From Candidatus Woesearchaeota archaeon (GTDB lineage Archaea; Nanobdellota; Nanobdellia; Woesearchaeales; 0-14-0-80-44-23), in contig JAVZCZ010000001.1 in the NCBI GenBank assembly GCA_038874135.1, positions 623,219-687,218 on the forward strand: DNA of 64,000 bases, in the 5' to 3' direction. Shown here piece by piece: positions 25,968 through 58,502 of the stretch; within the stretch, counting starts at the first letter, position 1; every line of letters starts with the position of its first letter. The position numbers and the translations under genes were made by a program. The notes beneath the pieces were generated by a model, which worked only from the letters and a program-made list of their open reading frames with translations, made no database searches and was not told where the DNA came from.

Positions 25968-26040
25968 AGCCTCTGGAGGGACTTGCACCCTCGACCTACT
26001 GATTACAAGTCAGTCGCTCTAGCTCCTGAGCTACAGAGGC
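25968..26040 (-). tRNA. tRNA-Thr (anticodon UGU)
   Basis: The reverse complement reads GCCTCTGTAGCTCAGGAGCTAGAGCGACTGACTTGTAATCAGTAGGTCGAGGGTGCAAGTCCCTCCAGAGGC. It has the acceptor stem GCCTCTG/CAGAGGC, the anticodon stem ACTGA/TCAGT with loop CTTGTAA, and the T-stem GAGGG/CCCTC. Confidence 0.65.
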
Positions 26041-41987: not shown

Positions 41988-42003
41988 ACCAATCCTTCTT
42001 TTA

Positions 42004-43194: not shown

Positions 43195-43244
43195 CTATAA
43201 AAATTTTATTAAAAATTTTGAAATAAGAAAAAAATTGTAAATCC

Positions 43245-43907
43245 TTATGATGAGATAAAGTCTATTTGCACCTGCACCTGTTTTTCTCCAGGAACTGCGT
43301 CAAACGGCACGGTTACCTTTGCAGCTACCCAGAGTTCGTTGTTAGTTCCATATGTGAAGGCTGTTCCAGTAGCGTTGGCGCAAAGGTTGCTCTTGGCAGT
43401 TGTTAGAGGTGTCCAGCTGGTTGTCTGGAAAGCGTCGTTACAGCCATCGTTTGCAGTTGGGTTTATAGCTGCAAACCACGCCTGGCTCCAGCCTGTTGAA
43501 ACAGAGTTTATCCAAGCTGTAGCGTTTGCAGAAGCATTTATTGTAAGGTTTCCATTAGTGTTTCCAGTATTTCTAACTATTATGTACCTCTTTGTCGGGT
43601 CTGATATGGCGTTTGCCCAGTCGCCCTGGCAGTCGGTGTCAGGTCTGGCTCCTGAAGAGAGGTTGCTTTCCATTGTGCAGTTTGTATTAACTAAAGCGTA
43701 TCCGCTTCCGAAGTCAATCGCCTGCGTTACGGTTATTGCTGAGCTGCTCGTAACAGTAAGGTTAACCTTTGCAGATCCAGATGTTGCGAATCCGGTTATT
43801 CCGAACTTCGAAAGCCGGTTTAGGCTGATTAGTGTTCCGCCTATTGAAACTATTATGGCAATCACGAGAAGGGTTGCCAATGTTTTATTGCTTATTTCTT
43901 CTGCCAT
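43245..43907 (-). CDS. Secreted protein with conserved N-terminal signal-anchor
   Basis: 220 aa. The N-terminus MAEEISNKTLATLLVIAIIVSIGGTLISL is related to the N-terminus of the adjacent small gene. The rest is Thr/Ser/Asn-rich. Confidence 0.5.
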   Translation of the reverse strand: MAEEISNKTLATLLVIAIIVSIGGTLISLNRLSKFGITGFATSGSAKVNLTVTSSSAITVTQAIDFGSGYALVNTNCTMESNLSSGARPDTDCQGDWANAISDPTKRYIIVRNTGNTNGNLTINASANATAWINSVSTGWSQAWFAAINPTANDGCNDAFQTTSWTPLTTAKSNLCANATGTAFTYGTNNELWVAAKVTVPFDAVPGEKQVQVQIDFISS

Positions 43908-43929
43908 TTTATTCCTCCCATCATTCCCA

Positions 43930-44150
43930 TCATTCTGGTTTTATAACATTTAAGCTTATTCTCGCCTGTCCGCTGGGCGGCTGCGAGGGCTTTATGACTG
44001 TGAGTGATATTTTTGAAGTTGTCGGGGCTGGCTGCGCGCTCTGTTTTTGCGTATTTGTCGCACTGAGTATTGTCCAAGTTCCAAGTATTGAAACAATAAT
44101 CGTTAGAACAAGCAGCACAGCTACAGTGTTTTTTGAGACTTCAACCATTT
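43930..44150 (-). CDS. Small secreted protein with the same N-terminal signal-anchor family
   Basis: The track ORF 43930-44340 is trimmed to the internal MVEVSKNTVAVLLVLTIIVSILGTWTIL (73 aa). The upstream part of the ORF overlaps the RNase P RNA and is rejected. Confidence 0.35.
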
Positions 44151-44257
44151 TCAACCTCTCCAGAGATGATTTAAGCTGCTTTAAATCATTTCCATTTTTA
44201 AATATTTCTATTCTGCGGTGGTTATAGAATGGCAAAATTTTTAATTTAGCACAGCTA

Positions 44258-44572
44258 TCATTTAAAAGGTAGGGCAGATACCCGGCTTTCGGAGCAGATG
44301 CTCTGAGGAAAGTCCGCCCACCATACAGAGCTGCACGCACAAGCGTGGCCTGGAAACAGGCGGCAACCGCTCAGAAACGAGACCTCCTGAGCCAAGGATG
44401 AAGCGTGAGAGTGCCCTGGCGACAGGGCTCAGTTAACCCGCAGACGTTCCTCAGGGAAGGGTGAAACGGCGAGCCCCAGCGGTGCAAGTCCGTTTTTGGA
44501 CGCTAAGTAGAATGCTGGGAGGGGCATTTCGCAAGATGCCTGACAGAAGGCGGCTTATTTCTGCCCTACAAT
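44258..44572 (+). ncRNA. rnpB: RNase P RNA (archaeal type A-like)
   Basis: Contains the universally conserved CR-I-like GAGGAAAGTCCGCCCACC and the CR-V-like ACAGAAGGCGGCTTA. The terminal P1 pairing is GGGCAGA...TCTGCCC. The length of about 310 nt is typical. Confidence 0.7.
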
Positions 44573-45594: not shown

Positions 45595-46905
45595 CTAATC
45601 TAATTCAATCTTCTTCCCACTCTGCCTTTTTATTGTTTCATATGCACTCATTATTAGCTCGCGAACCTTCTTCCTTTCACTTGGAGAAAGCTTCTCATAA
45701 TCCATCCTTAAACGCTGATAAATCTTAACTGCTCTTTCAACATTTCTCAACTCAGCTTCCCTGATAGCCCTCTTAGCCCTCAGCTTAATGATAGAAGTTT
45801 TCAAGCCAGCCGACCTAAAAACAAAAATCAGAATAATTGAAGCAACAAAAAATACCACAATAGTTAAAAGCCTCTTCTGCCGTAAGGCGTCCTCACTCTC
45901 AGCATAGGTAATTCCCGACATAGCACTAAGACGGAATTCTCGCATTTCAGAAACATTATCATAAAAGGCATAAACCTTAAAGGTATACCTCCCCTCGGGA
46001 ATTTCTGAACAATCCCAAAAGAATTCAACATCTGCGTCTTTAAATATCGTAAGTGAATTTGCCCTTATTTCAGAAATTAGACTACCTTTAGAATTCACAA
46101 CCTCAATTTTCGGCTCAAACTCAACACCCCTATTCCAATTTGAAACATAACTCACAACAATCCTATTTATCTCTCCAGGCTTGAATCCTGGAACTTCTAC
46201 CCTAATCGGAACTACTCTCACCTTCCCAATTCGGATAAGGGAATCATACCCTCGCTCTACACCATCGTAATACAGCCACACCCTTGCAAGATACTCACCC
46301 GAAAGATTACCACGGCTCCTACTTATCGTCTTCTCACTTCCAGAAGCAACTCCGCCAATACTCTGATTAATCCTGAAAACCTCAGAATCGCCATCATAAA
46401 GAACAAGAGAAGCATATGCATCCCTAATGTCACTCAGTCCAAGGTTTCTAACTCTTAAAGCAATCTCCCTCTCACTAGAGTTTATCATCGCAAAGAGAAA
46501 CTTATCAGACTTCACCACAGTATAAATCTGAGCACTTACAGATACACCGGCATTTATACCTTCTCCTTCAGAAGGCCTGGCTGAAAACACCACTTCAGTA
46601 ACATAAGTTCCAGGGCTCAAGCCAGAAGGTAGTTTTACTTCAACATTAACAGGATAGTATTCCTGCTCTGCACTTATCTTGAAAGAATAGTTGGATATTT
46701 TAAAATATTCTGCAAGCTCACCGCTCACAATAGCAGAAACATAAACCGGTACTCTATCCTTATTATACAATCTGAACTGCAAGTTATTTACAATGCCCGG
46801 CTCGTATTCCAGAGTATAATATGCTGGACCAACACCCAATCTCAATGCTTGCACAATTGAAGCTAATGTAAGCACTCCTAAAATCCAGATTAAAATTTTT
46901 TTCAT
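45595..46905 (-). CDS. Cell-surface protein with C-terminal TM anchor and cytoplasmic coiled-coil tail
   Basis: 446 aa with a signal peptide, an ectodomain paralogous to 42004-43194, the TM LLTIVVFFVASIILIFVF and a basic coiled-coil tail. It is the last gene of the HTH-plus-giant-protein operon. Confidence 0.55.
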   Translation of the reverse strand: MKKILIWILGVLTLASIVQALRLGVGPAYYTLEYEPGIVNNLQFRLYNKDRVPVYVSAIVSGELAEYFKISNYSFKISAEQEYYPVNVEVKLPSGLSPGTYVTEVVFSARPSEGEGINAGVSVSAQIYTVVKSDKFLFAMINSSEREIALRVRNLGLSDIRDAYASLVLYDGDSEVFRINQSIGGVASGSEKTISRSRGNLSGEYLARVWLYYDGVERGYDSLIRIGKVRVVPIRVEVPGFKPGEINRIVVSYVSNWNRGVEFEPKIEVVNSKGSLISEIRANSLTIFKDADVEFFWDCSEIPEGRYTFKVYAFYDNVSEMREFRLSAMSGITYAESEDALRQKRLLTIVVFFVASIILIFVFRSAGLKTSIIKLRAKRAIREAELRNVERAVKIYQRLRMDYEKLSPSERKKVRELIMSAYETIKRQSGKKIELD

Positions 46906-46906
46906 C

Positions 46907-49900
46907 TCAACTCGCCATAATATAGATCGTAGCATTCTTAGTAGCAGGAGGCTCCGCGCTTGGAACTTCCACTCTTATGTCAATCCTCGCTTCATCCGCA
47001 TAGTCCAGATATCCTAAATCAATAATTGAAAGAGTTGAAATGTTAGTCATGTTAGTCCAGGATGTCCGCGAGTTTCTCCAGTCAAAAGCATAATATTCTC
47101 CGCTAATATTTCCTATCCTGAACTGATAATAGCTAGTGTTAAGAGGCACTGAACTCCAGAGGGCTGTAGAGTTTATACTTATATTCACAGGAATGTTACC
47201 ATTATTTCTAATTTTTATAGGCTGAGGACTATTATCTAAGGTGTCTTCTATTGCTCCAGGATTTAAATTTCCGAAAGAGACATTTGCAACATAGATTTCA
47301 ATATCCCTATAAGGCTCTATTGAGAAGTTCCAAGTATCACTCCACTCTCCATAGTCAAAGCTGTCAAACGCCCTAACCTTCCAGAAGTACGAAGTTGAGA
47401 GGTTAAGCTGGCCCGGATAGGTGTAGCTTGTTAAATTCGTATCAGTGATTATTAATGGAGAGGAGAAGTCAGCATTGTCATCTACCACGAGAGAATATGT
47501 TATCTTATCTGATTCTGGGTCAATGGCGGCATTCCAGACGAAAGTCATATTTCGGTCATGCTCTGTTCCGCTGTTATTCAATGGGCTTGTAAGGTTAACT
47601 TTTGAAGGAGGAGTGTTGTTACTCCTAATTTCAATGTATGTGGGTAGGGTTTGATTGTATCCCGTTTGAGAATAATTCAGAGATTCAAATATTACAAAGA
47701 ATTCGTACTTGCTACCCTTAGTGCCAGTTGCGTTTACATACCAAGTTACATTGCAGCTCTGCTGGTCATAAATACTGCCCAAGCAGCTTAAATCGCTGCT
47801 CAGCAGAGGATTTGAAGTGTTGGTCCAGAACGGGATTGTTCCAGGAATAGTTGAAATTATCCCTTTTGAGGATAACACTAAGAACTCGTGACTGGCGTAC
47901 CCGCCGATGTTTCCAGCATTGTCAAACGCCTTAACATAGAATGTGTGATTCCCCGACGGAAGCGTTTCGTTCATGTAATACAAACTAGTTGTATTTCTAC
48001 CACCCACTTCAGGCGCACTATCATCAATAGCGTAGTAATAGCCAGCCACCCCGCTCACATCATCATATGAAGCACTCCAGTTAAATGTTCTGTTGCTCAC
48101 AAAGCTCCACCCTTCAATTGAGTCCGTAAGATTCTGAGGTATGGATGGCGGAGTCCAGTCAATGCTGAAATTTACTGAAATAGTGTTTGAATTATTAACA
48201 TTATCATACGCTCTCAGCTCAACAACACAGCCGTACTGCATCTCAACATTACAGTCCATTCCTAAGCCAACGCTTATTCCTAAAACATCGTTGCAGTTCC
48301 TTACAGTCCAGCCCTTAGTTTGAGTTCCATTGCTCAAAACCCTGTAGTAGCATGCCTTGAGCCCTGAAACAGAATCGGAATCTGAGATGTTAATCTGGAA
48401 GTTAGAATTCTTCCAGGAGCCCGCAGCTGGAGAGTTAAGAACTATTTGAGGTGCAGTTACATCTCTAACTAAGGTAAACTGAGTTGTATTCATATTTCCA
48501 GCATTATCATAACAGGTTATTGTGCCGCTTCCATTAAAGGTGCTGGAAGTGCTAAAATTATAAGCGCCAACATCCTGAGAGGCATATGGTGAAGAAGTAT
48601 CATTCCCATACCCGGCAATTGTAGAAAGCTGAGGGAAATTTACAGCCGCAATCCCGTTGGAATCACCAGCACTCACAGAAATGTTAATGCTTCCAGAGCC
48701 AGCAGGGCTATAATATGTAGTGTTTCCAACAACATATGCATAATCAGAAGTTTTAGAAATTTCTGTAATCACGCAATAAGGTATTGAATAGTCTATTTTG
48801 ATTGTTTTGCTTTGGGTTGTTTCTGTGTTTCCGGCGTTGTCTGTGCTGTTGTATCTTATGTATGTTGTTCCCTGGGTGTTTATTTGTATTGGTGCGGTGT
48901 ATGTTGTGGTTGGCGTGCAGGTGTTTGTTGTGTCTGTGCAGTATTGTGTGAGTGAGCATCCTGAGCCTGAGGCGTCGTTGCATGTTAGTGTTACGTTTAC
49001 GTATGGGCTTTTTGTCCAGGTGTTGAAGGTGTAGCTTGCTCCGGTGCTGTTTACTGCTGTTGCCGTGGTTGTCGGCGGTGTTGTGTCTATTTTGATTGTT
49101 TTGCTTTGGGTTGTTTCTGTGTTTCCGGCGTTGTCTGTGCTGTTGTATCTTATGTATGTTGTTCCCTGGGTGTTTATTTGTATTGGTGCGGTGTATGTTG
49201 TGGTTGGCGTGCAGGTGTTTGTTGTGTCTGTGCAGTATTGTGTCAACGCGCAGGTGCCCCCTCCGCTGTCTGTGCAGTTCAAAGTAACATTTACATAAAG
49301 GCTTTTAGTCCAAGTATTGAAAGTATAAATTGTTGAAGAGTTAGTTATTGCAGTAGCATTAGTAAAGGGAGCATTTGCATCATAAGTAAATGTTGTGTTT
49401 ATAACTGCTGAAGTTTTTATCTGTCCACAAGCGTCTGCAGAATTTTCTAATGCTCTAAGGTATATCGTGCAGGTGCCTGTAACTGTGCAGGCTGTAGATG
49501 CTACGAACTGGCAGCTGGCTTGGCTGCCGCTGCTTACTTGTGTTGAGTTGCACAGGGTCTGTGTGCATGCTGAGTCCTTACAAACTTGAAGTTTCATTGC
49601 GTCAGCATTCGGGTCTGTAATTGTGGCTGTGGCGTTTACTATAGTGTTTGGTCCCGCGCAGCTGGGCGTTGCTGATGGACTTGCAGGAGTGTTTGGTGGG
49701 GCGTTTGTTGAAGTGCTCGTCCACCCAGTGGCTGTACAGCTTACTCCAGTATAGCACGTCTGGCTTGTGGAATTGTAACAAAATCCTGAGTTGCAGTTTC
49801 CTCCAGTGCATGTGCATAGTGTTGTATTTACTACTGTACTTGTGCTTCCACTTGCCCCTCCAGAGGTGCATGCTACATTATAACAGCAGGTGTCTATGTT

Positions 49901-52900
49901 GCCTGAGTTGCAGGTACTGCTGTCTGCTCCCTTGCAGTAAGTGTTAGGGCTTGCGCACATGGTTGTGCTGCTTGGACATCCCGTTCCAGTGTAGTAGCAG
50001 GTTGTTAGAGTCCAGCACTTTCCACTTGGTCCTGTTCCCGCACAGGTGCTTACATATTCTATTGGGTATCTGCTAGTTGTACTGCTGTATGCTGTTTCTA
50101 CACTCTGATTGTTTCTAGCCTTTACCCTGTAGGTGTATTGTGAGAAGCAGTTTAGTCCAGAATCTATGTAACTCATCGCAGTTGTCCATCCAGAGTCTGT
50201 TGCTCCAGCATTGTATGATGTTTCGTTAGCATAGTATTGAGGGTTGTTATATGCACATACTGCTGTCCAGCTTACATTTAAACTTGTTGTGCTTGTTGGA
50301 GTTACTGTCGGCGCACTGGGTCCATTTACGAGCGTGTATGTACAGCTTGTTGCTGAGGCTGTTCCAATATTATTTAAAGAATCTCTCGTTTGGGCGGTGT
50401 AGCAGTATTGCGTGTTACAATTTAACCCAGTATCAGCCCATGTTGGGCTGGTCTGCCATCCGCTGCTAGCTGTTGTTGGACTTGTTCTATTTATTTGATA
50501 GTATACCGTAGCTGAGCATCCCGTATCTGTAGCTGTTGTGGCTGTTATGTTTATTTGTGAGCTTGAGATTGGTGTTGTGCTGCTTATTGTTGCCGGGTTC
50601 GGAGTAGGCGAGCTGACATCAATGCTCAACACAGAGCAAGAACTCCAACTTCCCCAATTATTGTAAACATCCTTCGCTTTGACCCTCCACGAATATGTGC
50701 CTGTTGATAGAGCGCTGGGAGTCCAGCTATTTGAGGAAGGCGTTCCTGTTTGAAGAGCAGTTCCGCTGCAGTCAGAAGTTGAGTAAATCTCAACCTGATA
50801 GCCAGCAACAGAAGAACAGCCAACATCTGAAGGAGCACTCCAAGACAAAGTGGGAGTTGAAGAGCCATTACAATTACCAGAACTTGGCAGCAAGCCCGTA
50901 GGAGCATTAGGACCTGCAAAGTCAATGTAATAAATGTTTGAACTCTTCAAAGATTCAGCATTGCTAACATTATCTATTGAATAAGTGCATATCTTCTTAG
51001 CGCAGTAGCTACCAGGCGGGCACCCTACCAAAAATTGTGAAGAGTACAAACTCATCCCACTTATATCGCACGCTGTTCCAGAATCAACAATCTTATACCA
51101 GGTTGAACTGCATCCAGAACCAGAACCGTCACTGCAAGAAAGTGTGACTGAAACGTTTGAATTGTTACAAGCTTGTCCATTAGGATTAATAGTTGTTGTT
51201 GGAGCCTGTGCATCAATATAAATTGTTGAACTCTTAGTAGTTTCAACATTAAAAGCATTATCAGTGCTGTTATACCTAACATAACCCACGCACACACTTC
51301 CCGCAGCGCACTGGAATAAGATGGGAGTGCTAAGCGAAGATGGAGTGCAGGAGTTTGTCCAGTCACCACAAGCGTGAGTAGCCAAGCAGCCACTCAAAGC
51401 ATCCGTACAGTTAAAACCATTCACACTAACATTCAAACTAGTCCAAGTGCCAATAATATAACTGCTTGAATCAGACTTAGTAATATTAGAAATACTTGTT
51501 GTTGGAGCTGTTGTGTCACTTCCAACAATTAGTGTTCTCATCTCTGTTTGATTTACATTTCCAGCCAAATCTTGAGCATAAGCAATGTAGGTATATGTTC
51601 CCGTGGGGAGTAGTGTAAAGTTGTGATATAATCTATAAATCCCTGCATTGTAGGAAGTAGCTATCTCCTCAGCACTAAGCGCCCTATTGTAAATGCGGAC
51701 TTCATCAATTGTGCCTTTTAAGTAATAAGTTGAATATTTACCAATAATTAAATTTAAATTGTTCACACCTATATTGCCAGTTGCTGATAAAGCTGATCCA
51801 GTAGGAGTGCCATCTAACCATAATCTAACTGCACTTCCATTATAAACCATCGCAACATGATGCCATGAATTGGGAGATACTGAACCACCGTCAGACACTT
51901 CTTTCCAACCACTTATATTAACTCCTCCTTTTAAGGTTCCACTGCTGGTGACATATAACCAATACACAGAATCTGCTGCTAAATTTCCTTTTTCAATTAT
52001 CATTTGTGTAGTTGTTGGAGTTGCTGCGAGGTTGATCCATGCTTCAAGAGTAATAGCATTTGTAATGTTTAAACTTTTATCAGTTGGGACGGTTATATAG
52101 TCATCTATCCCGTCAAATGTTAATGCGCTTCCGAATTTTCCGGCTGTCGTAATATTTGGGCAGCTAGTTCCAGAACATGTTGCATTGTTGCCGTAAATGC
52201 TCCAATCTTTAAAGAATGTGCTGTTTTCTTCACTCTCTTGATTGAATCTCCACCACCCAACCAGGCTGCTATTCCAATCAATAAGTCCTGTTGTGTTGTA
52301 AGCGTCACTTATACTAACATTTACGAAACTCCAATTCTTGTATGTAAATGTTCCATTCGCATCAGTTTGTCCTTGAAATGAAATAGCAGGTTTCACATTA
52401 TCTATTGTAATAATTCTTGTTTCGCTTTGTCCTGCGTTTGCTACTGAGTCGTTTGCCCAGCCGTAATAGGAATAGGTTCCCTGTGTTAGGTTTGTTATGT
52501 TGTTGTAGAATCTCCATTCTGTTGAGCTGTATTTTGCAAATTCTGACTGGTAGTGCATTAGTATTTCTTGTGGAGATAGTGCTCGTTTGTAAATGCGGAC
52601 TTCATCTATTGATCCATTAAAGAAGTAGGAGGAGTTCGTTAATGTTCCTATTTTTAGTGTGTCTGTTGTTGCGTAGGGTGTTGATGTTGCACTGGTGTAA
52701 GCTAGAAAACCACTTTTGTTTTGCCCATTTACATATAACTCAAGGTTGTCATTCCCTTTAATAATTCCTACAACGTGTACCCACTGATTTTTTGGAAAGT
52801 CTGTAGTTCTGAATTCATCCCACCCAGCTCCATCTCCGTATGCAACGCTTAGCATCGCGCTATTGTTCATAATTCCTAAGAAATAGTTTTTCTGAGCCCA

Positions 52901-53839
52901 AGTGCCAGGACCTTTTTGAACAAAAGCAGTGCCTCCACCTAGTTGAGTTGTATTTATGTACACCCAAGCTTCTATAGTGATTGGAAATGTAGTTATTTGA
53001 AGAGATGTGCTGTGAGGTATCATAACCCAGTCATCTACTCCGTCAAATGTAATTCCCTTTCCAAAACGTCCTGTAGTATATTGAGGGGGCCTATTTCCAT
53101 CTGCATTACTAGTATTTGCATCATACATTGTTCCGTTGTTTCCATATTTTGATATGTCTACTGCTGTTGTGGCGCTGTCTCCTATTGCAGAATTGTTGTT
53201 GAAGTTTAATGCTAGTACTAGTGAATCGTCGTAGAAGGTGTAGTTTGTGCCGTTCCAGTTGAATTTGAAGGAGTCTAGTCCTGCTCCGCTTTCTACTATT
53301 GTTATATTTATTTGTGTGTAGTTATTGGGGGTGTATGTGTTGTTTGCTGGGGTTGGATAATAAAATGTTAATGTAGGAGCTGTTATGTCTCTGTATACGT
53401 AAAGTGTTGTTGTTCCTGTTGAGCCCCAGTAGGAGTAGCAGGTTATTGTGGCTGAGCTGCTGTAAGTGCTGCTCGTTGTCCAAGTGTAGGTCCAACTGTA
53501 GGGATAGCTTGTATCACTTCCTCCAGTGGATACTGTGCTTGGAAAACTCACACTTGATATGCCGTTAGGATCATTAGTGCTTGCAACCACATTTACTGTG
53601 AATGTTCCTCCTGCTATTGTGTTGTAATATTCGTATGGGGCTGAAGCATATTGGTATTGGGGGTTTGTTCCTTCGGTTATTGATTGTATTGAACATGTTA
53701 CTGTGTAAGCAAATGCTTTGAAGCCGTAGGCTTTTCCGTCTTCTTTAGGATTAACTCCGTATATTAGGAAGGTTATGGTGAGTATCAGCGCTATTATTTC
53801 CAGCGTTTTTCTCATTCCGGGTTGTATTCTCGTTTTCAT
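46907..53839 (-). CDS. Giant (2310 aa) secreted cell-surface protein with two LamG (concanavalin A-like) domains and Thr/Ser/Cys-rich repeats
   Basis: N-terminal signal/TM. Two LamG_3-like blocks (FDGVDDWVMIPHS ... GSIDEVRIYKRALSPQEI and FDGIDDYITVPTD ... GTIDEVRIYNRALSAEEI). Long Thr/Ser-rich Ig/FN3-like repeats, including two near-identical 98-aa tandem units. Confidence 0.8.
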   Translation of the reverse strand: MKTRIQPGMRKTLEIIALILTITFLIYGVNPKEDGKAYGFKAFAYTVTCSIQSITEGTNPQYQYASAPYEYYNTIAGGTFTVNVVASTNDPNGISSVSFPSTVSTGGSDTSYPYSWTYTWTTSSTYSSSATITCYSYWGSTGTTTLYVYRDITAPTLTFYYPTPANNTYTPNNYTQINITIVESGAGLDSFKFNWNGTNYTFYDDSLVLALNFNNNSAIGDSATTAVDISKYGNNGTMYDANTSNADGNRPPQYTTGRFGKGITFDGVDDWVMIPHSTSLQITTFPITIEAWVYINTTQLGGGTAFVQKGPGTWAQKNYFLGIMNNSAMLSVAYGDGAGWDEFRTTDFPKNQWVHVVGIIKGNDNLELYVNGQNKSGFLAYTSATSTPYATTDTLKIGTLTNSSYFFNGSIDEVRIYKRALSPQEILMHYQSEFAKYSSTEWRFYNNITNLTQGTYSYYGWANDSVANAGQSETRIITIDNVKPAISFQGQTDANGTFTYKNWSFVNVSISDAYNTTGLIDWNSSLVGWWRFNQESEENSTFFKDWSIYGNNATCSGTSCPNITTAGKFGSALTFDGIDDYITVPTDKSLNITNAITLEAWINLAATPTTTQMIIEKGNLAADSVYWLYVTSSGTLKGGVNISGWKEVSDGGSVSPNSWHHVAMVYNGSAVRLWLDGTPTGSALSATGNIGVNNLNLIIGKYSTYYLKGTIDEVRIYNRALSAEEIATSYNAGIYRLYHNFTLLPTGTYTYIAYAQDLAGNVNQTEMRTLIVGSDTTAPTTSISNITKSDSSSYIIGTWTSLNVSVNGFNCTDALSGCLATHACGDWTNSCTPSSLSTPILFQCAAGSVCVGYVRYNSTDNAFNVETTKSSTIYIDAQAPTTTINPNGQACNNSNVSVTLSCSDGSGSGCSSTWYKIVDSGTACDISGMSLYSSQFLVGCPPGSYCAKKICTYSIDNVSNAESLKSSNIYYIDFAGPNAPTGLLPSSGNCNGSSTPTLSWSAPSDVGCSSVAGYQVEIYSTSDCSGTALQTGTPSSNSWTPSALSTGTYSWRVKAKDVYNNWGSWSSCSVLSIDVSSPTPNPATISSTTPISSSQINITATTATDTGCSATVYYQINRTSPTTASSGWQTSPTWADTGLNCNTQYCYTAQTRDSLNNIGTASATSCTYTLVNGPSAPTVTPTSTTSLNVSWTAVCAYNNPQYYANETSYNAGATDSGWTTAMSYIDSGLNCFSQYTYRVKARNNQSVETAYSSTTSRYPIEYVSTCAGTGPSGKCWTLTTCYYTGTGCPSSTTMCASPNTYCKGADSSTCNSGNIDTCCYNVACTSGGASGSTSTVVNTTLCTCTGGNCNSGFCYNSTSQTCYTGVSCTATGWTSTSTNAPPNTPASPSATPSCAGPNTIVNATATITDPNADAMKLQVCKDSACTQTLCNSTQVSSGSQASCQFVASTACTVTGTCTIYLRALENSADACGQIKTSAVINTTFTYDANAPFTNATAITNSSTIYTFNTWTKSLYVNVTLNCTDSGGGTCALTQYCTDTTNTCTPTTTYTAPIQINTQGTTYIRYNSTDNAGNTETTQSKTIKIDTTPPTTTATAVNSTGASYTFNTWTKSPYVNVTLTCNDASGSGCSLTQYCTDTTNTCTPTTTYTAPIQINTQGTTYIRYNSTDNAGNTETTQSKTIKIDYSIPYCVITEISKTSDYAYVVGNTTYYSPAGSGSINISVSAGDSNGIAAVNFPQLSTIAGYGNDTSSPYASQDVGAYNFSTSSTFNGSGTITCYDNAGNMNTTQFTLVRDVTAPQIVLNSPAAGSWKNSNFQINISDSDSVSGLKACYYRVLSNGTQTKGWTVRNCNDVLGISVGLGMDCNVEMQYGCVVELRAYDNVNNSNTISVNFSIDWTPPSIPQNLTDSIEGWSFVSNRTFNWSASYDDVSGVAGYYYAIDDSAPEVGGRNTTSLYYMNETLPSGNHTFYVKAFDNAGNIGGYASHEFLVLSSKGIISTIPGTIPFWTNTSNPLLSSDLSCLGSIYDQQSCNVTWYVNATGTKGSKYEFFVIFESLNYSQTGYNQTLPTYIEIRSNNTPPSKVNLTSPLNNSGTEHDRNMTFVWNAAIDPESDKITYSLVVDDNADFSSPLIITDTNLTSYTYPGQLNLSTSYFWKVRAFDSFDYGEWSDTWNFSIEPYRDIEIYVANVSFGNLNPGAIEDTLDNSPQPIKIRNNGNIPVNISINSTALWSSVPLNTSYYQFRIGNISGEYYAFDWRNSRTSWTNMTNISTLSIIDLGYLDYADEARIDIRVEVPSAEPPATKNATIYIMAS
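48790..49380. repeat. Intragenic tandem repeat, two units of about 294 bp with about 165 bp of perfect identity
   Basis: The string tctattttgattgttttgctttgggttgtttctgtgtttccggcgttgtctgtgctgttgtatcttatgtatgttgttccctgggtgtttatttgtattggtgcggtgtatgttgtggttggcgtgcaggtgtttgttgtgtctgtgcagtattgtgt occurs twice. It encodes the repeated YCTDTTNTCTPTTTYTAPIQINTQGTTYIRYNSTDNAGNTETTQSKTIKID. Confidence 0.8.
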
Positions 53840-54330
53840 TCTTTCTCTTTTGCCTTATTATAGGCTGTCCAGACCGTTCTGTAGTTTCTTTTCAGGATTT
53901 TTGCAATTTGGCTGAGCCGCATATTTTTTTCATCCTTTAGGAACTTTACAGCAGATTCTAGTATTCCCATGTTTCTGTTTTCAAATGCTCTTAGGGGGAT
54001 GAGTATTCCTGTTTTTTCTGCTGGTTTTTTTCTTTCAGTCTTTTTTATTGTAGTCCAGATTGTCTTGTAGCTTCTTCCAAGTTTTTTTGCTATCTCTTTT
54101 GTTGAGTAGCCCTTTGCTTTTAGTTCGGTGCATATTGCTCCCAATGGTGCTCTTTTCTGAAATATTCCTGCATCTATGAAGTTTCTGCCTTCTTCTGAAA
54201 TTCTTAACAAATCCTCCTTCTGAATTCCATATCTCCTGCTCAGTTCTTCTATGCTAGTGCTGATTTTTTGCAGCATGTCTTCTTCCCTGCTCAATATCTT
54301 CTCCATCCACTCAGCATTTTCAAATTCCAT
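53836..54330 (-). CDS. Small double-HTH protein (two sigma-70 region 4/LuxR-like helix-turn-helix repeats), putative regulator
   Basis: 164 aa. HTH1 is GYSTKEIAKKLGRSYKTIWTTIKK and HTH2 is MRLSQIAKILKRNYRTVWTAYNKAKEK. There is a 4-nt overlap with the giant LamG gene. Confidence 0.55.
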   Translation of the reverse strand: MEFENAEWMEKILSREEDMLQKISTSIEELSRRYGIQKEDLLRISEEGRNFIDAGIFQKRAPLGAICTELKAKGYSTKEIAKKLGRSYKTIWTTIKKTERKKPAEKTGILIPLRAFENRNMGILESAVKFLKDEKNMRLSQIAKILKRNYRTVWTAYNKAKEKE

Positions 54331-54396
54331 TTTTCCTATTTAATAAGTATTTTATTTATTAATTATTTAAATATTTTCCTATTTAATAAGTATTTT
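54331..54396. promoter_or_regulatory. Two 23-bp direct repeats (ttttcctatttaataagtatttt) 43 bp apart in the upstream region of the double-HTH gene
   Basis: Perfect copies at about 54331-54353 and 54374-54396. They are AT-rich and sit where a BRE/TATA and an operator would be expected. Confidence 0.45.
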
Positions 54397-54397
54397 T

Positions 54398-57300
54398 TTA
54401 TTTTTCATCAGGACTTACTGAGATAAGATAGTTCACCTCCTCTTGATTATAATCTGTAACTATGACGCCGTTCCAGTCTACCCTAAACTTTCTGCCGGTT
54501 TCATTATATGATTGTGAGTTCAGATATTCTTCTATTTTCCTTTTAATCGAGTCTTCTAGCATCTTGTGTAATTCTAAGGGGTCTAATGTTGCATTGAGAT
54601 CACCACAAGGACCTCCAACGCACCTCACGCCTGCCTTGAATGTGAAGAACTTCTGATACGGCACTGTTGTGTTTCCATAAGGCTCGTATGGCCACACATA
54701 GTATGGTTCTAGGTGTCCGTATGCTGAGTTATTGAACATGAAGCTGTATATGTAGGTGCCTATATCTCCTAATGAGTTATTTGCGTATATTGTTATTGTA
54801 TGAGTTTGTTGGTCTGTAAGGTTTGTTGTGTTTATGTAGTATGGAGCGTTTAGTGTGTTGTTTGTTCCTCCGTCTATGTTGTACCATGAGGCGTTGGCTC
54901 CGCTTATTGTGAATTTGAGTAGGGTGCCTGTGTGTATTATTGAGTTGTTTACTGGGCTTTCCAGGGTTACTATTGGCAGTCCCGCCATGTTGTATGCATA
55001 TGCTGTTTTGTTTCCAAACCTGAATTGCTGAGTGTGTTTTCCTCCTGTTAGCACATTTACTGTGTAATATGATGTTGTTGAGCAGTTGTAGTTTTCAACC
55101 ATTATTGAGATGACTGGTATGCTCAACTCTGAATCCATTAAGGTAGTGTAATTTATGTAGCTCAGTTCTCCATCCGAAGTGCAGCCTAGTGTTGAATTTT
55201 CAATTTTGCCATCTGTGCATGAGGCATTGCTGATTACTATTATCCTGTTCTTGTTTATTATATTGTTTCCACATTTTAGCTCTATAAATCTAAGATCGTC
55301 TTCTGTTTCGTTGTTGTCATTTGGCTCTTCCCTGTAAGTTGTGCCGTTGTATGCTGTTATTATTAAGTTGGCAGTTCCTGTAGTGTTGAAGGCAGTTGTC
55401 CAGTTTCCTCCTATCATTGGGAAGCTCTGTACTGTTATTATTATTAGGTCTATCTGTAATTCAAATTCTTCTTCACTCAGCAGAGGGACTGTCCAGACTA
55501 CCTTTTCAACCCTTCCGTTGCCGTTCAGGTCTATTAACTGGACGTTGAATCTTTCATCATTTGTTACATCTTGTTTTGTTCCATTGACTATCCAGAAGAG
55601 CTTCACTTGCTCTGGCAGCGACTCCGGTATTGAGCTATAGGCAGTTGTATTCTCATAGTGTATGTAAGACTCTGATCTTATTGTTACTTTTTTCTTCCAA
55701 GTGTTCTGGTCTTTTGTTGGTTTTTCTTCAATCTTTTCAGGAGCTGGAGTTGTGAATCTTATAAGGTATTGTGTTTCTTCATCTTTTTCTGGAATTATTA
55801 GTTTTATTGCTTCATCTATCTTTGCAGGTGGCGTTACCTCTTTTGCTACCTGTGGAATTTCAGTAAGTGTTTGTGCTGAAGTTCCATTCTCCTCCTCTTT
55901 TTCTTGTATCACAACATTTTCTGATGTCTCTGCAGTACCGTTTTCCGTTGTTATTTCTTGAGTAACAGTTTGGTTTTCTGTTGCTTGCAATACACTTCCT
56001 GTTGTTATATTCTCCTGACTTGCATTTTCTTCCAAGATTAGTGTTGTTGTATTTTCTTCACTGTACACTGCAAATCCTGTTATCCTACTAAGCTCTGCAA
56101 AAATCTTATATACGAAGCTGACAACTCTTTCTGCAAAGTCGGTTATGCTCCTAGTGGTTTTAATTGCTGCTCCCGTTATTGTCTGGACTGAACTCTGAAT
56201 TTGTGTTTCTCCCCTGTTGTAGTTTTCAATATTTTCAGTCTTGTTGTCCACGCTTACTAGGGCTTCTGTAACTTGTATGTTTAAGCTTCCGTATCTTTTA
56301 TACACTGTTATGTTCTTGGCATCTTTTGGAAGCACTATATCTATGGTCTGAGTTTCATTGCTTACTTTTCTTAGCGAGATTTTATGCGTCCACTCAACCG
56401 GTTTTCCAATTTCCGCCTTTGACTGTACAAACTCCTGCGATATGATTATTACTCCTTTTTCAAACATCTCAATTATGATTGTAAACCTGCTCTTTATTTC
56501 TCCTGTTGAAGCTTCAAGTATTACATAACCGAGGCCTGTGCTTTGGTCTTCCTTCCAGATGTTCAGAATTTCTCCTTTTGTTTCTGCTCTAATATTTGCA
56601 GACTCTATTACTGAGTATGTTATGTTTTGGTCTTTTCCGCCCGTGCAGTATTCTCTGAGGTTTATGGTTGTGTAGTTTTCCGTGAGGATTATTGGATTGA
56701 AAATGCATTCTATTGCAGTTTTTTGCTGAGGTAGTACTTCCACTTCTACTTCGTTGCTATATGTTATTTCGTTGGTGTTTGAAGCTGCAAACTTTATGGT
56801 GTAGTATCCTGATTCTTCTGCTCTTATTTCTGCGATTTCTTTTTCAATTGTTATTGTAAGACCATCAGCCCCTATTGCGATATAACTTAGTTCCCTTCCA
56901 TTTTCTTCAGTGAAGTATTCTGATAGGTTTATTATTGCACTTTCGTTTATCTCTAGTGTTATTGTTGGAATTTCTTTTGTTAGCACAGGCGCTTTTTCTG
57001 TTATGTTCTGAGTTACTTCTTCGCTTATGTTTTGGGTTATGTTTTCTGTTATGTTTTGAGGTATGTTTTCAATAGTCTGTTCGCTTGTTTTGTTTTCTTG
57101 CGGAATTTCTTCGCTTATGTTTTGGGTTATGTTTTCTGTTATGTTGGTGCTTGTTTCTGTTATGCCAGTTTCATTGCTTTCTGATGTTATGTTTTCTGAA
57201 GTTTGGTTGGTTTCGTTTGTTTCAATTATGGTGATGTTTTCTTGTGTTGTAACTTCTGTAGCGTTTTGAGTGGTTATGTTTTCCCAGCTGCTGAGGTTTT

Positions 57301-57781
57301 GGGTAGTTTCTGGTATTGTTAGATTGCCAGTTCCGTTTTCCGTCTCATTGTAGGTTGCACTTTCGTTTTCTAATATTGCAAGTCCTGTTATCCTTGTTCT
57401 TAAGATTCCTGTTGCATACAGCAGTCCAGTTATTCCTACGGCTATTAATAACACTGCTATTATCGGTGCATAATTGCGCGTTTCTCTTTCCTCTTCAATT
57501 TTTCTTATTTTTTCTTCTAATTCACTGAGTTTCTGTTGCTGCTGAGTTATCTCTTGCAGTTTTTCGTCTTTCCAATTCTCAGGCGTTTTTCCTTCAAAGA
57601 TTCTTGCTATTTCTCTGGTGTACTCTTCTAAGCTATACTCATCCTTCAGATAGGCGATGTAGAGCTGTTTTCTGGTCGCGTCTGTTATTTCTATCTTCTT
57701 CCTAAGCAGGTCTATGGTTGTGGCTGTCTTTTCTATTTCTGCCCTAATCTTCACTATCCTTTCACGCTTGGATTTATTCAT
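54398..57781 (-). CDS. Type II membrane protein (1127 aa) with cytoplasmic coiled-coil, single TM and a huge sequon-rich ectodomain
   Basis: N-terminal coiled coil (about 110 aa), then the TM IIAVLLIAVGITGLLYATGIL, then dozens of N-x-T/S sequons. These include the tandem ENITQNISEE(I/V) repeats, which are mirrored by 40-bp nucleotide direct repeats at about 57018 and 57108. Confidence 0.7.
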   Translation of the reverse strand: MNKSKRERIVKIRAEIEKTATTIDLLRKKIEITDATRKQLYIAYLKDEYSLEEYTREIARIFEGKTPENWKDEKLQEITQQQQKLSELEEKIRKIEEERETRNYAPIIAVLLIAVGITGLLYATGILRTRITGLAILENESATYNETENGTGNLTIPETTQNLSSWENITTQNATEVTTQENITIIETNETNQTSENITSESNETGITETSTNITENITQNISEEIPQENKTSEQTIENIPQNITENITQNISEEVTQNITEKAPVLTKEIPTITLEINESAIINLSEYFTEENGRELSYIAIGADGLTITIEKEIAEIRAEESGYYTIKFAASNTNEITYSNEVEVEVLPQQKTAIECIFNPIILTENYTTINLREYCTGGKDQNITYSVIESANIRAETKGEILNIWKEDQSTGLGYVILEASTGEIKSRFTIIIEMFEKGVIIISQEFVQSKAEIGKPVEWTHKISLRKVSNETQTIDIVLPKDAKNITVYKRYGSLNIQVTEALVSVDNKTENIENYNRGETQIQSSVQTITGAAIKTTRSITDFAERVVSFVYKIFAELSRITGFAVYSEENTTTLILEENASQENITTGSVLQATENQTVTQEITTENGTAETSENVVIQEKEEENGTSAQTLTEIPQVAKEVTPPAKIDEAIKLIIPEKDEETQYLIRFTTPAPEKIEEKPTKDQNTWKKKVTIRSESYIHYENTTAYSSIPESLPEQVKLFWIVNGTKQDVTNDERFNVQLIDLNGNGRVEKVVWTVPLLSEEEFELQIDLIIITVQSFPMIGGNWTTAFNTTGTANLIITAYNGTTYREEPNDNNETEDDLRFIELKCGNNIINKNRIIVISNASCTDGKIENSTLGCTSDGELSYINYTTLMDSELSIPVISIMVENYNCSTTSYYTVNVLTGGKHTQQFRFGNKTAYAYNMAGLPIVTLESPVNNSIIHTGTLLKFTISGANASWYNIDGGTNNTLNAPYYINTTNLTDQQTHTITIYANNSLGDIGTYIYSFMFNNSAYGHLEPYYVWPYEPYGNTTVPYQKFFTFKAGVRCVGGPCGDLNATLDPLELHKMLEDSIKRKIEEYLNSQSYNETGRKFRVDWNGVIVTDYNQEEVNYLISVSPDEK

Positions 57782-58361
57782 TTGACAGTTTCTTTTCAGC
57801 TCTTTTGGCTATTGTCCAGATTGTGCGCGGATCCCTTTTGAGTGTGGATGCAATTTGGCTCAGTTTGAGCCCTTTTCCTCTGAGATGATGCACTATTGCC
57901 TCTAGGACGGAGAGCTGCCTTGAGGCGATGATTGAGATTGGAATCTTATTTTCAGAAGCGGCATCCAATTGTTCAGGCATTTTGGAGCTCGCATTTTTGT
58001 AGGTGCTCCAGATTGTCCTGGGGTTTCTGTTGAGAATTTTTGCAATTTTGCTGTAAGAGTACTTCTTGTTCTCTACTAGATATTTTACTATACTTTCGAA
58101 AGGAGATATCTTTGTGTTAAAGATTGAATCTGGAAAATTTTCAGAGCTCTCTTCTGTTGGTTCTATGCTTTTTAGAAGTGTTAAAAGTATTTCGGAGGAT
58201 AGCTCTTCTGTTTTCTTCTGTATTATTCTTGTTATGATTTCGTTAAGCGCGCTTTGAAGCTTCTTACTCTTTAGGCTTTCATCTCCTTGCTTTTCTAAGA
58301 ATTCCTTATTTCTCAAGTATTCTTCGCGCGCGATTTTAAACCACTCTACCAAAAGCCGCAA
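57774..58361 (-). CDS. Small double-HTH protein, paralog of 53836-54330
   Basis: 195 aa. HTH1 is YSYSKIAKILNRNPRTIWSTYKNA and HTH2 is GLKLSQIASTLKRDPRTIWTIAKRAEKK. There is an 8-nt overlap with the 1127-aa gene. Confidence 0.55.
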   Translation of the reverse strand: MRLLVEWFKIAREEYLRNKEFLEKQGDESLKSKKLQSALNEIITRIIQKKTEELSSEILLTLLKSIEPTEESSENFPDSIFNTKISPFESIVKYLVENKKYSYSKIAKILNRNPRTIWSTYKNASSKMPEQLDAASENKIPISIIASRQLSVLEAIVHHLRGKGLKLSQIASTLKRDPRTIWTIAKRAEKKLSNE

Positions 58362-58387
58362 AAGTGCTACTAATATATTGATTTACT

Positions 58388-58502
58388 CATTATGTAAGAT
58401 TATTTATATATAAATATTTTGAATTTTATTATTTTTTACTTATTTTGTAAGATTATTTATTACTTATTATGTAAGTATTATTACTTATTATGTAAGTATT
58501 AT
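58388..58502. promoter_or_regulatory. Four copies of a 21-bp AT-rich direct repeat (consensus cttattatgtaag(a/t)ttattt) in the divergent promoter between the double-HTH gene and pheS
   Basis: Copies at about 58388, 58438, 58461 and 58482. The last two are perfect tandem acttattatgtaagtattatt. They share a TAAG(T/A)(A/T)TT core with the repeats at 54331-54396. Confidence 0.5.

Follow-up and report, generated by a model that had tools for sequence, protein, structure and literature searches.

In operons of ECF sigma factors and transmembrane anti-sigma factors the regulator is encoded first and its partner second. The two cassettes described here meet this order criterion (regulator first, partner second, stop and start codons overlapping), and they are like those operons in that a small sigma-region-4-like HTH protein is followed by a single-pass membrane protein with a large outward part, often in overlapping genes, and in the autoregulation of their own promoter that is inferred below. 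However, neither a sigma region 2 nor an anti-sigma domain was found, the HTH unit is present in two (or four) copies per protein, many partners have no cytoplasmic part and the host has an archaeal TBP/TFB-type promoter. Transmembrane transcription regulators such as ToxR, CadC, TcpP and the archaeal motility and pilin regulators have been surveyed (PMC10269533), and DPANN archaea are not mentioned in that survey. Fused relatives of our cassettes combine, as these regulators do, DNA-binding and large extracytoplasmic parts with a hydrophobic segment in a single polypeptide, a layout that suggests gene control from the membrane. Yet the HTH proteins of our locus are soluble and separate from the membrane partner, and the fusions have the reversed order, giant ectodomain first and HTH units last, with an unusually short hydrophobic segment. 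Among LuxR/FixJ-type (GerE) regulators such as RcsB and BglJ, the RcsB domain superposes on a single unit of our proteins, but these lack a receiver domain, carry two units in tandem behind a helical N-terminal region and score below the family cut-offs. The best whole-chain fold match, although a weak one (E 0.02, TM about 0.3), was the CRISPR-repeat-binding protein Cbp1 of Sulfolobus (PDB 2lvs), a small archaeal tandem-HTH protein that reads repeated DNA sites, as inferred for ours, but with other targets and in another genomic context. As to the surface proteins of the locus, big1127 and big2310, the SPEARE-type and other giant surface proteins of DPANN archaea are likewise very large, rich in glycosylation sites, adhesin-like and found in genome-reduced symbiotic archaea. 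The combination of serine protease, adhesion and restriction-endonuclease domains in one chain that defines the SPEARE type is lacking, as no protease or restriction-endonuclease domain was detected by Pfam or NCBIfam in big1127 or big2310 and the latter showed LamG, Ig-like and OmpL47-type domains only; moreover, no dedicated translationally coupled regulator is described for such DPANN giants in the literature searched.

The window, that is the whole 64-kb stretch of DNA analysed, comes from a tiny, symbiotic archaeon of the DPANN group and contains five genes on the minus strand in the order hth195 (57774-58361; 195 aa, TTG start, an N-terminal helical region and two LuxR/sigma-region-4-like HTH units), big1127 (54398-57781; 1127 aa, a single-pass membrane protein), hth164 (53836-54330; 164 aa, a tandem-HTH protein), big2310 (46907-53839; 2310 aa, a giant surface protein) and p446 (45595-46935; 446 aa as called). 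Reading the DNA directly, the hth195 stop and the big1127 start overlap by 8 nt (ATGAATAA) and the hth164 stop and the big2310 start by 4 nt (ATGA). The big2310/p446 junction is also tight, since the probable p446 ATG lies at 46905, 1 base past the big2310 TGA; this start (MKKILIW...), giving a protein of 436 aa, is likely to be the correct one rather than that of the 446-aa version. Which TTG codon starts hth195 is uncertain, as those at 58361, 58352 and 58316 are each used in public annotations. A first-pass annotation of the sequence had given this gene order, these protein lengths and both overlaps, all of which held exactly, and had proposed a single operon. The latter is doubtful, because the 67-nt gap before hth164 has its own TATA box and repeats, and two transcription units, each cassette with a promoter-like region, are probable instead. 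The 3' side of big1127 has no T-run, so read-through into hth164 is possible; a stop of transcription between these two genes can be imagined, but nothing shows it and there are no transcript data, and co-transcription within each cassette is likewise an inference. A T-rich stretch follows the p446 stop.

The two HTH proteins are paralogs, as had been proposed (37% identity over 122 aa, E 2e-20), and a similarity search revealed no third paralog in the window. Both scored above the Pfam cut-offs for HTH_23 (hth195 35.9 bits and hth164 41.3 bits, cut-off 24.6) and Sigma70_r4_2 (27.1 and 37.1 bits, cut-off 25.7). These are broad families defined at the level of fold, so that the matches indicate an HTH and are silent on function. 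Single HTH units superposed on sigma region 4 and on the DNA-binding domain of RcsB, the latter at an rmsd of 0.5 A and 42% identity over 38 residues, and the most conserved part of the family is the recognition-helix motif R-D-x-R-T-I/V-W-T. At the sequence level, BglJ and RcsB were among the best NCBIfam matches for hth195, below the NCBIfam cut-offs, while GerE (PF00196) reached 17.3 bits in hth164, below its cut-off of 23.5, and gave no Pfam match in hth195. The proteins are thus alike in fold to the LuxR/GerE type, but membership of that family is not shown by sequence. Concerning sigma factors, TIGR02937 scored 16-19 bits against a cut-off of 42.9 and no Pfam match to Sigma70_r2 appeared at E up to 0.1. 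For hth164, AlphaFold2 predicted a soluble, all-helical fold (pLDDT 92.3) without any long hydrophobic helix, and no hydrophobic stretch was seen by eye in either HTH sequence, although no hydrophobicity scan was run.

The two giants were said to be unrelated to each other and indeed show no pairwise similarity, but both draw on a pool of modules common to other HTH-linked giants. In big1127 a charged N-terminus of ~104 aa precedes one hydrophobic helix (residues 105-123) and a sequon-rich ectodomain (55 N-x-S/T sequons in the protein versus 17 +/- 3.2 in shuffles), of which residues ~650-930 form a domain common to many HTH-linked giants. The N-terminus holds a conserved ~75-aa cytoplasmic N-domain (residues ~13-88) of unassigned function that occurs in 18 of ~50 HTH-linked giants, split and fused forms alike. 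Neither Pfam nor NCBIfam nor the PDB sequences gave a match to big1127, and no match to a cytoplasmic anti-sigma domain was among the Pfam and NCBIfam results; PDB sequence searches with p446 were equally unproductive. In big2310 only ~11 residues precede the single hydrophobic helix (12-30), followed by two Laminin_G_3 domains (E 3e-55), Ig-like and OmpL47-type domains and a C-terminal domain common to other HTH-linked giants (locus L001); its sequons number 91 versus 51.5 +/- 6.2 in shuffles. In the third protein, p446, three beta-sandwich domains of the Ig-like type lie between a signal peptide and a C-terminal membrane helix, and the cytoplasmic tail is helical. A role of these proteins in contact with a host is inferred, and rests on the domain content of the partners alone. 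In the sister assembly L003 the giant gene is split (295 + 2159 aa), and phase variation was considered and set aside, an assembly problem being the simplest explanation because the split coincides with internal repeats (48791-49243) where two other assemblies break. With regard to possible type IV pilin-like proteins (class III signal peptide), the big2310 N-terminus (GMRK-TLEIIALIL) resembles the N-termini of the neighbouring small proteins p72 and p220 (ISNK-TLATLL).

Upstream of hth195, operator-like direct repeats on the minus strand (58383-58496) comprise four copies of CTTACAWAATRAGTAA, at 58481-58496, 58460-58475, 58436-58451 and 58383-58398, with a partly palindromic core (TACTTA-N5-TAAGTA). 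Of the four, three are upstream of TTTATATATAAATA (58400-58413, minus strand) and one is downstream. We read this element from the sequence as the TATA-like part of the hth195 promoter and take it to be a TATA box by the archaeal consensus; it lies between hth195 and the divergently oriented PheRS alpha gene. The motif gave four exact matches at this site and one 2-mismatch match elsewhere in the 64 kb, versus 0.25 expected, and TRF described the repeats as 3.1-3.3 copies of period 21-24. The corresponding minus-strand region of cassette 2 (54331-54393) holds two copies of ATACTTATTAAATAGGAAAA, at 54374-54393 and 54331-54350, 43 nt apart and flanking the TATA box TATTTAAATA (54364-54373); the second copy adjoins the hth164 ATG. 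This motif gave two exact matches versus 0.01 expected and agrees with that of cassette 1 at 14/20 positions, counted by eye. Each HTH gene in the window is therefore preceded by 2-4 direct copies of a ~16-20-bp motif with the core CTTACAWAAT, placed on both sides of the TATA box. Within the window the core is confined to these two promoters and the other promoters are without it, and a generic promoter element was rejected on this ground; the one further exact 10-mer, at 27209, is within coding sequence and was dismissed as a chance match. No Rfam match was obtained in the cassettes. That the repeats are operators bound by the HTH proteins is inferred, there being no binding data.

The pairing of an HTH gene with a surface-protein gene recurs in ~100 related genome fragments, and the HTH family comprises ~2,250 clusters at 50% identity, its organism-labelled relatives being DPANN archaea. 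Where the source names them, family members are all called 'hypothetical' or generic 'HTH domain'. For stand-alone HTH genes, the stop was overlapped by the start of the next gene in all 65 assessable related loci, 29 times as ATGA (-4) and 10 times by 8 nt. This count is somewhat inflated, as genes in related loci came from a crude longest-ORF caller and the refinement of starts favours the ATG nearest the HTH stop. The partner had an N-terminal membrane helix in 62/65 cases versus 247/568 background genes (p 2e-17), the high background of 43% reflecting a lenient hydrophobicity threshold. Partners of at least 700 aa made up 17 of 45 complete cases, versus 26 of 568 background genes (p 3e-10), and another 25 of the 45 were of 200-300 aa, corresponding to a secreted protein of ~245 aa. 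The nearest relative of an HTH protein had the same class of partner in 42/60 cases, versus 25.4 +/- 4.5 for shuffled labels. We define the cassette by tandem HTH units with an R-x-x-R-T-I/V-W-T helix, overlap of the HTH stop with the start of a following gene whose product has a membrane helix at its N-terminus, and upstream CTTACA-type direct repeats around a TATA box. Both window cassettes meet this three-part definition, the operator of cassette 2 being a variant, and on present evidence we lean towards regarding the window as holding two tandem copies of a cassette widespread in DPANN archaea.

These results bear on several claims of the first-pass annotation. It had proposed a duplicated two-gene module of regulator or chaperone plus surface cargo, not recognised from described systems, and had called for a gene-neighbourhood analysis; the analysis supports the module, and no description of it was found in the literature searched. 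A giant partner proved not to be obligatory: about half of the relatives pair the HTH gene with the ~245-aa secreted protein. The annotation would have been refuted by a lack of conservation beside large surface genes, but synteny is conserved, or by HTH proteins that were transposase or resolvase fragments, but Pfam detected neither kind of catalytic domain in the five proteins or in the products of adjacent genes. That the HTH genes are remnants of mobile elements lying beside large genes by chance is indeed all but excluded. In its favour are weak matches, all below threshold, to HTH_Tnp-type families and to the N-terminal part of the IS630 transposase. However, the IS630 model scored only 16-20 bits against a cut-off of 100, the HTH proteins stop right after the second HTH and the DDE catalytic domain expected after a paired HTH is absent from both hth195 and hth164. 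Furthermore, the large family is conserved in full length, with synteny and partner overlap invariant, no relatives appeared in a viral-contig scan and terminal inverted repeats were not noticed around the cassettes, though no systematic search was made.

We looked for the promoter motif in the related loci, using a 10-mer taken solely from the window with up to 1 mismatch and searching positions -120 to +3 of genes. It was present upstream of 15/23 HTH genes versus 5/245 other genes in the genome loci, and of 37/73 versus 13/281 in a larger set (p 3e-19); in a looser rescan without an intergenic filter, 4 of 16 other core-carrying genes proved to be further HTH-family genes. By this strict test about half of the HTH genes lack the core in their upstream regions; many of these have variant repeats. 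With one locus counted per 60%-identity cluster, the spacing of the repeats clustered at multiples of 10.5 bp (R 0.53, p 5e-6), whereas background intergenic repeats showed no phasing (R 0.07, p 0.85). The proximal copy usually adjoins or includes the start codon. We consider it very unlikely that the repeats instead serve as a lineage-specific initiator or basal promoter element, or as a site of recombination or phase variation. In favour of this, the proximal copy sits at the expected transcription start, often with the start codon inside it, and direct repeats around a promoter could support switching by inversion or deletion. Against it, the motif is absent from the other window promoters and from 268/281 other upstream regions, no copy that lies upstream of the TATA box can act as an initiator, and the direct orientation and helical phasing of the repeats are those expected of sites to which a protein binds cooperatively. 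Moreover, no recombinase was found by Pfam in the five proteins or in ten flanking window genes, nor among the called genes of loci L001 and L003-L006, and the sister assemblies L003 to L006 are collinear without rearrangement at 99.7-100% identity over those parts of the two repeat regions that each covers.

The repeats precede stand-alone HTH genes regardless of the partner, and the conserved promoter repeats favour a regulator over a chaperone. It is unlikely, though not excluded, that the HTH proteins are cytoplasmic helpers (escort or membrane-insertion factors) and that the repeats belong to another factor. This reading draws support from the universal coupling to membrane or secreted proteins in related loci, from the stoichiometric synthesis that a stop/start overlap would give and from the fusions to the partner class. 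But the fold and the conserved recognition helix are of the sequence-specific DNA-binding type, the repeats track HTH genes whatever the partner, even before a fused gene at locus L039, and partners of 240 to 2,500 aa with unrelated N-termini are hard to fit to one escort.

In at least 16 independent clusters with less than 50% mutual identity, a giant surface protein carries the complete HTH module as a C-terminal fusion, and further fusions occur at loci L011, L039, L045 and L054; the L039 fused gene itself is preceded by a motif-TATA-motif cassette. Fusions have an ectodomain of 600-5,600 aa and two or four HTH units, which follow a hydrophobic segment and a polybasic run. As that segment has only 8-15 residues, whether it spans the membrane, and in which topology, is uncertain, and membrane signalling is inferred. 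Artefacts of poly-A slippage can be set aside, as the polybasic run uses mixed AGA/AAG/AAA codons and the ORFs run without a break in contigs as long as 722 kb. Nor does plain loss of a stop codon account for the fusions: unfused giants with the same last domain finish at a 'G.WTI' strand, to which the fusions add the hydrophobic and polybasic segment.

The fusions bear on another alternative, an ECF-like partner switch in which the membrane partner would use its cytoplasmic part to hold the HTH protein at the membrane and release it upon contact of the ectodomain, the tether being covalent in the fusions. The mirrored layout of regulator first, single-pass membrane partner second and overlapping stop and start speaks for this, as do the above-cut-off Pfam matches of the HTH units to Sigma70_r4_2, the recurrent N-domain of big1127 (~75 aa, cytoplasmic, in 18 of ~50 HTH-linked giants) and the position of the fused HTH module behind a hydrophobic and polybasic segment. 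Against it, big2310 and all ~245-aa partners could not hold a regulator because few residues precede their membrane helix, Pfam found no anti-sigma domain and no sigma region 2, and the 8-15-residue segment of the fusions is of uncertain topology. To our knowledge, archaea are not known to use sigma factors. We regard a partner switch as unlikely.

The reading that we favour, with moderate confidence, is that of two tandem self-regulated cassettes, each formed by a LuxR/sigma-region-4-like tandem-HTH factor and a surface protein. In the promoter of each, a ~16-20-bp operator (core CTTACAWAAT) would be present 2-4 times in helical phase, with copies to either side of the TATA box. Next would come a gene for a regulator of ~165-195 aa with an N-terminal helical region and two HTH units and, its start overlapping the HTH stop, a gene for a glycosylated surface protein anchored in the membrane. 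The HTH protein would bind the operators of its own promoter and so set the transcription of a bicistronic message, tricistronic with p446 in cassette 2. The sign of regulation is inferred. An operator upstream of the TATA box would be in the usual position for activation and one over the expected transcription start in the usual position for repression; operators on both sides therefore suggest dose-dependent control, which may switch on and then limit itself. The stop/start overlap would make translation of the surface protein depend on that of the regulator, fixing the ratio of both, and related but distinct operators would allow separate control of the two adhesin-like proteins. Against this reading, there are no binding or expression data, and the repeats could possibly be bound by another factor.

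A bolder reading, no more than a possibility, is that the cassette is a DPANN-specific surface-to-gene signalling device. The fused relatives would then be adhesin-like receptors with two or four DNA-binding units on a cytoplasmic tail, a reversed ToxR, or Notch-like if the tail is cut free, and in the split form the conserved cytoplasmic N-domain of the partner would hold or release the soluble tandem-HTH protein. If this were true, contact with a host cell would directly reset how the contact proteins themselves are transcribed.

DPANN archaea spend their lives attached to other cells, and huge surface proteins take up a considerable part of their small genomes; the control of these proteins is almost unknown, and few of the archaea can be cultured. 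What is new here is the promoter-like cassette of each HTH gene, the occurrence of its motif upstream of HTH genes elsewhere with 10.5-bp phasing, and the HTH-giant fusions. To judge from the literature searched, in which no description of it was found, this looks like an undescribed way for DPANN cells to control the proteins that contact other cells, although that role is inferred. An HTH family of ~2,250 clusters thereby gains both name and context, and a recognisable regulator together with its DNA motif offers a sequence-only route to regulated surface-protein genes in any DPANN genome. Finally, the natural fusions suggest that gene expression in these organisms may be linked to the state of their surface.

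The five minus-strand ORFs that the first-pass annotation had placed between positions 45595 and 58361 all held, with every coordinate confirmed. They are hth195 (57774-58361) and hth164 (53836-54330), encoding small double-HTH proteins, big1127 (54398-57781) and big2310 (46907-53839), encoding giant surface proteins, and p446 (45595-46935), encoding an anchored surface protein; the names give the lengths in amino acids. The sequence at the hth195/big1127 junction is ATGAATAA and that at the hth164/big2310 junction is ATGA. The likely start of p446 is an ATG at 46905, one base past the big2310 stop codon, from which a product with a signal peptide (MKKILIW...) is read, and a T-rich stretch lies 3' of its stop codon. 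The phenylalanyl-tRNA synthetase (PheRS) alpha and beta genes are found upstream in divergent orientation, and a TrmB-family gene downstream, convergent. Assemblies labelled Candidatus Woesearchaeota encode identical proteins, and the contigs that carry them reach 910 kb. The best-supported reading, to which we lean by a modest margin, is that these genes form two autoregulated cassettes in tandem, hth195-big1127 and hth164-big2310-p446. Each would have a separate promoter with operators, and translation of the surface protein would be coupled to that of its regulator. Termination-reinitiation coupling at overlapping stop and start codons is documented in archaea.

The two HTH proteins are paralogs (37% identity, E 2e-20), each with two HTH units (HTH_23 and Sigma70_r4_2, above cut-off), and no third copy is present in the window. 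An AlphaFold2 model of hth164 based on 68 homologs was confident (pLDDT 92.3, pTM 0.73) and predicts a long N-terminal helix and a second helix followed by two three-helix units, each preceded by a short strand. No whole-chain match to this model was found among solved structures, the top hit being the multi-HTH, CRISPR-repeat-binding protein Cbp1 (E 0.02). A single unit superposes on the DNA-binding domain of RcsB (0.5 A over 38 residues, 42% identity), and single units also superpose on sigma region 4. That the HTH proteins are merely non-regulatory escorts is very unlikely, as both their fold and their conserved recognition helix are typical of DNA binders. The window HTH proteins failed the membership test for LuxR/GerE-type regulators, their GerE score being below cut-off, and also that for transposases, since no transposase domain was found in the cassette proteins; the possibility that the HTH genes are a mobile-element remnant is practically excluded.

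Four copies of CTTACAWAATRAGTAA, spaced 21, 24 and 53 nt, were located upstream of hth195 in the region common with the PheRS gene, three before and one after a TATA-like box; the rest of the 64-kb window contains a single near match, against 0.25 expected. The 67-nt gap ahead of hth164 contains two exact copies of ATACTTATTAAATAGGAAAA, 43 nt apart and flanking TATTTAAATA, the second of which touches the hth164 ATG. Both arrays were reported independently by Tandem Repeats Finder. HTH genes of unrelated lineages show at least one ACTTACA(T/A)AAT-type copy 40-100 nt upstream and another abutting or containing the start codon. To guard against circularity, enrichment was tested with the core 10-mer CTTACAWAAT derived from the window alone, allowing up to one mismatch between -120 and +3. 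It was found upstream of 15 of 23 HTH genes versus 5 of 245 other genes, and in a larger set upstream of 37/73 versus 13/281 (p 3e-19); when a looser rescan without the intergenic filter gave 16 other genes with the core, four of them turned out to belong to the HTH family. The alternative that the repeats serve another factor, or recombination, has very little in its favor because the motif tracks the HTH genes themselves. The best repeat-pair distances cluster at 21, 42, 53, 63, 74, 84, 94, 105 and 126 nt, with a 10.5-nt period (Rayleigh test on one locus per 60%-identity cluster, R 0.53, p 5e-6), and repeats in other intergenic regions showed no phasing (R 0.07, p 0.85). Copies on the same face flanking a TATA box are the pattern expected from cooperative binding of a regulator, an inference for which there are no binding data. 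Regulator sites in archaeal promoters are usually activating when they lie upstream of the TATA box and repressing when they cover the transcription start.

A four-member profile searched against 1.84 billion representative proteins placed 2,246 clusters in the HTH family at a cut-off of E 1e-3 and 1,898 when this was tightened to 1e-10; where the source names them, they are called 'hypothetical' or 'HTH domain' proteins. Pattern scans of species-representative genomes gave 28 loci, the majority labelled Woesearchaeota, Pacearchaeota or Nanoarchaeota and eight 'uncultured Methanosarcinales', a label that is unverified; one weak match in Legionella is probably unrelated. Metagenomes added 75 loci. 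With a simple ORF caller, and with identical proteins dropped, the 3' end lay within the contig for 74 stand-alone HTH genes, of which 65 had a downstream ORF that could be assessed. The partner start overlapped the HTH stop in all 65 (29 as ATGA, 10 by 8 nt), a figure somewhat generous because start refinement prefers whichever ATG is closest to the stop, a bias that does not touch the exact -4 and -8 classes. A hydrophobic helix was present in the first 150 residues of 62/65 partners versus 247/568 background ORFs of the same loci (p 2e-17). Among complete partners, 17 of 45 reach at least 700 aa, versus 26/568 (p 3e-10), and 25 of 45 have 200-300 aa; ten more leave the contig after more than 700 aa. 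The first-pass annotation had proposed coupling of double-HTH genes to giant surface protein genes, with related gene neighbourhoods as the check; on running it, coupling to membrane or large partners held, though about half of the HTH genes pair instead with a secreted protein of about 245 aa. The latter proteins (loci L014, L016, L023-L026, L028, L029, L033, L035, L053 and others) form one unannotated family with the conserved stretch GGSFTT..LN.T.Q..RWKAYVGN, and their genes are often followed by runs of more 200-300-aa genes; in L035 a gene for signal peptidase S26 follows. Rare partners include a Schlafen/AlbA-type protein (L020) and, in L036 (10001-13548), a 1026-aa protein with two Ser/Thr kinase domains that overlaps a distant HTH member by ATGA and is of signalling rather than adhesin type. 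Next to this kinase gene lies another, coding for over 5,000 aa, with TPR and kinase domains. Partner class was the same as in the closest HTH relative in 42 of 60 cases, versus 25.4 +/- 4.5 with shuffled labels, which means that the pairs are for the most part inherited together.

The big1127 protein has a charged N-terminus of about 104 residues, a single hydrophobic helix and an ectodomain with 55 N-glycosylation sequons (17 +/- 3.2 expected), whereas the N-terminus of big2310 is short, with one helix, and the protein carries two LamG domains, Ig-like and OmpL47-type domains and 91 sequons (51.5 +/- 6.2 expected). They show no mutual resemblance, yet each has modules common to other HTH-linked giants, that is, large surface proteins coupled or fused to a family HTH protein. 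The cytoplasmic N-domain of big1127 (about 75 residues) recurs in 18 of about 50 such giants, fused and unfused alike, and residues ~650-930 of big1127 are similar to 16 others; the LamG block of big2310 resembles many, and its last ~230 residues match the giant of L001. Sigma/anti-sigma-like tethering of the HTH protein by its membrane partner is attractive for partners of the big1127 type but cannot apply to big2310 or the ~245-aa proteins, both without a cytoplasmic part, and we consider it unlikely. Inside big1127, a 24-nt tandem repeat (3.2 copies, 56994-57070) codes for the sequon-rich stretch ...QNITENITQNISEE... just outside the membrane helix and might be a site of length variation. 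In big2310, OmpL47-type domains are encoded by near-identical repeats (48791-49243), at which two sister assemblies have contig ends and a third has the gene rearranged and split (295 + 2159 aa; L003, L004 and L005 compared). This is probably an assembly problem, although true copy-number variation remains possible. A moderate-confidence model of p446 (AlphaFold2 on the later-start form p436, 45595-46905, with a 4-sequence alignment, pLDDT 76) shows three Ig-like sandwiches followed by a membrane helix and a cytoplasmic tail of about 90 residues, also helical; fold matches include PapD-like pilus chaperones (CsuC, DraB, FimC), WxLIP and ASH/MG domains. Its relatives occur after giants in L001 and ahead of an HTH gene in L032. 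The motif P-x-[FIL]-T-G-[FLM] is found in 19 of 37 large partners (L001, L007, L008, L010, L017, L018, L031, L043, L089 and others), about 20 residues after the point where the N-terminal membrane helix begins, and is repeated inside some of them; similar stretches in the window are RITGLAILENE directly past the big1127 membrane helix, SRITGFAVYSEE within big1127, and FGITGFATSG in p220, a protein of a neighbouring cluster. The motif could be a processing or sorting signal, or merely the first strand of a repeated domain.

That cluster, a second one of surface proteins, is found on the minus strand (41556-44148) directly downstream of the cassettes and comprises p72 (probably 43930-44148), p220 (43245-43907), p396 (42004-43194), a p446 paralog with 27% identity, and p143 (41556-41987), in a gene order kept in the unrelated contig L112 (622-3809). 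Its small proteins begin M..IS.KTLA(I/V)L and the big2310 N-terminus (GMRKTLEIIALIL) looks alike, a possible hint of a pilin-like signal and of a link between big2310/p446 and this cluster. An archaeal RNase P RNA gene (44270-44568, plus strand, 158 bits) overlaps the mechanical ORF 43930-44340 at its 5' part, so that this ORF probably starts at internal Met65. A tRNA gene lies at 25968-26040 on the minus strand.

Two HTH units are present in 78 of the 151 best family members, four in 67 and three in 6, and 16 of these members are proteins of 595-5,919 aa with the units at the extreme C-terminus (P0004, P0006, P0010, P0011, P0016, P0057 and others, with two or four units). Typically, a conserved last ectodomain (...QEELYFC...YST..G.WTI) is followed by 8-15 mostly hydrophobic residues, a polybasic run (RRKKKKK) and the whole stand-alone protein, N-terminal helices included; unfused giants with the same last domain end exactly at the G.WTI strand. 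Fusions are continuous ORFs in L011, L039, L045 and L054, and a homopolymer at the junction was ruled out. Two motif-TATA-motif cassettes precede the fused gene of L039, and L045 shows a stand-alone HTH gene, a giant-HTH fusion and another membrane-protein gene, in that order. By inference, the fusions probably represent a giant joined to the HTH protein of the next cassette within a tandem array of the window type, and they argue for a functional tie between both partners. As the hydrophobic segment has only 8-15 residues, the membrane side of the fused units is unresolved. Crossing is possible; if the segment did not cross, the units would lie outside the cell, a placement hard to reconcile with the promoter evidence or with stand-alone members lacking signal peptides.

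The cassette is similar in logic to ECF sigma/anti-sigma operons, but neither sigma region 2 nor an anti-sigma domain was found in the cassette proteins and the membership test failed. It also failed for transmembrane transcription regulators, covered in a survey from which DPANN, the small symbiotic archaea, are absent (PMC10269533); the fused forms are alike, whereas the window HTH proteins have no membrane helix. Local autoregulators of adhesin genes are alike in logic, and a dedicated autoregulator with its target is an already known kind of arrangement. Full-text searching of the literature, in an incomplete set, turned up no account of the pairing, the motif or the fusions, which is absence of evidence only. 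The cassette is unusual in three respects: its regulator is obligatorily coupled in translation to a surface protein, its DNA motif is conserved throughout an entire group of superphylum rank, and fusion to giant surface proteins has recurred.
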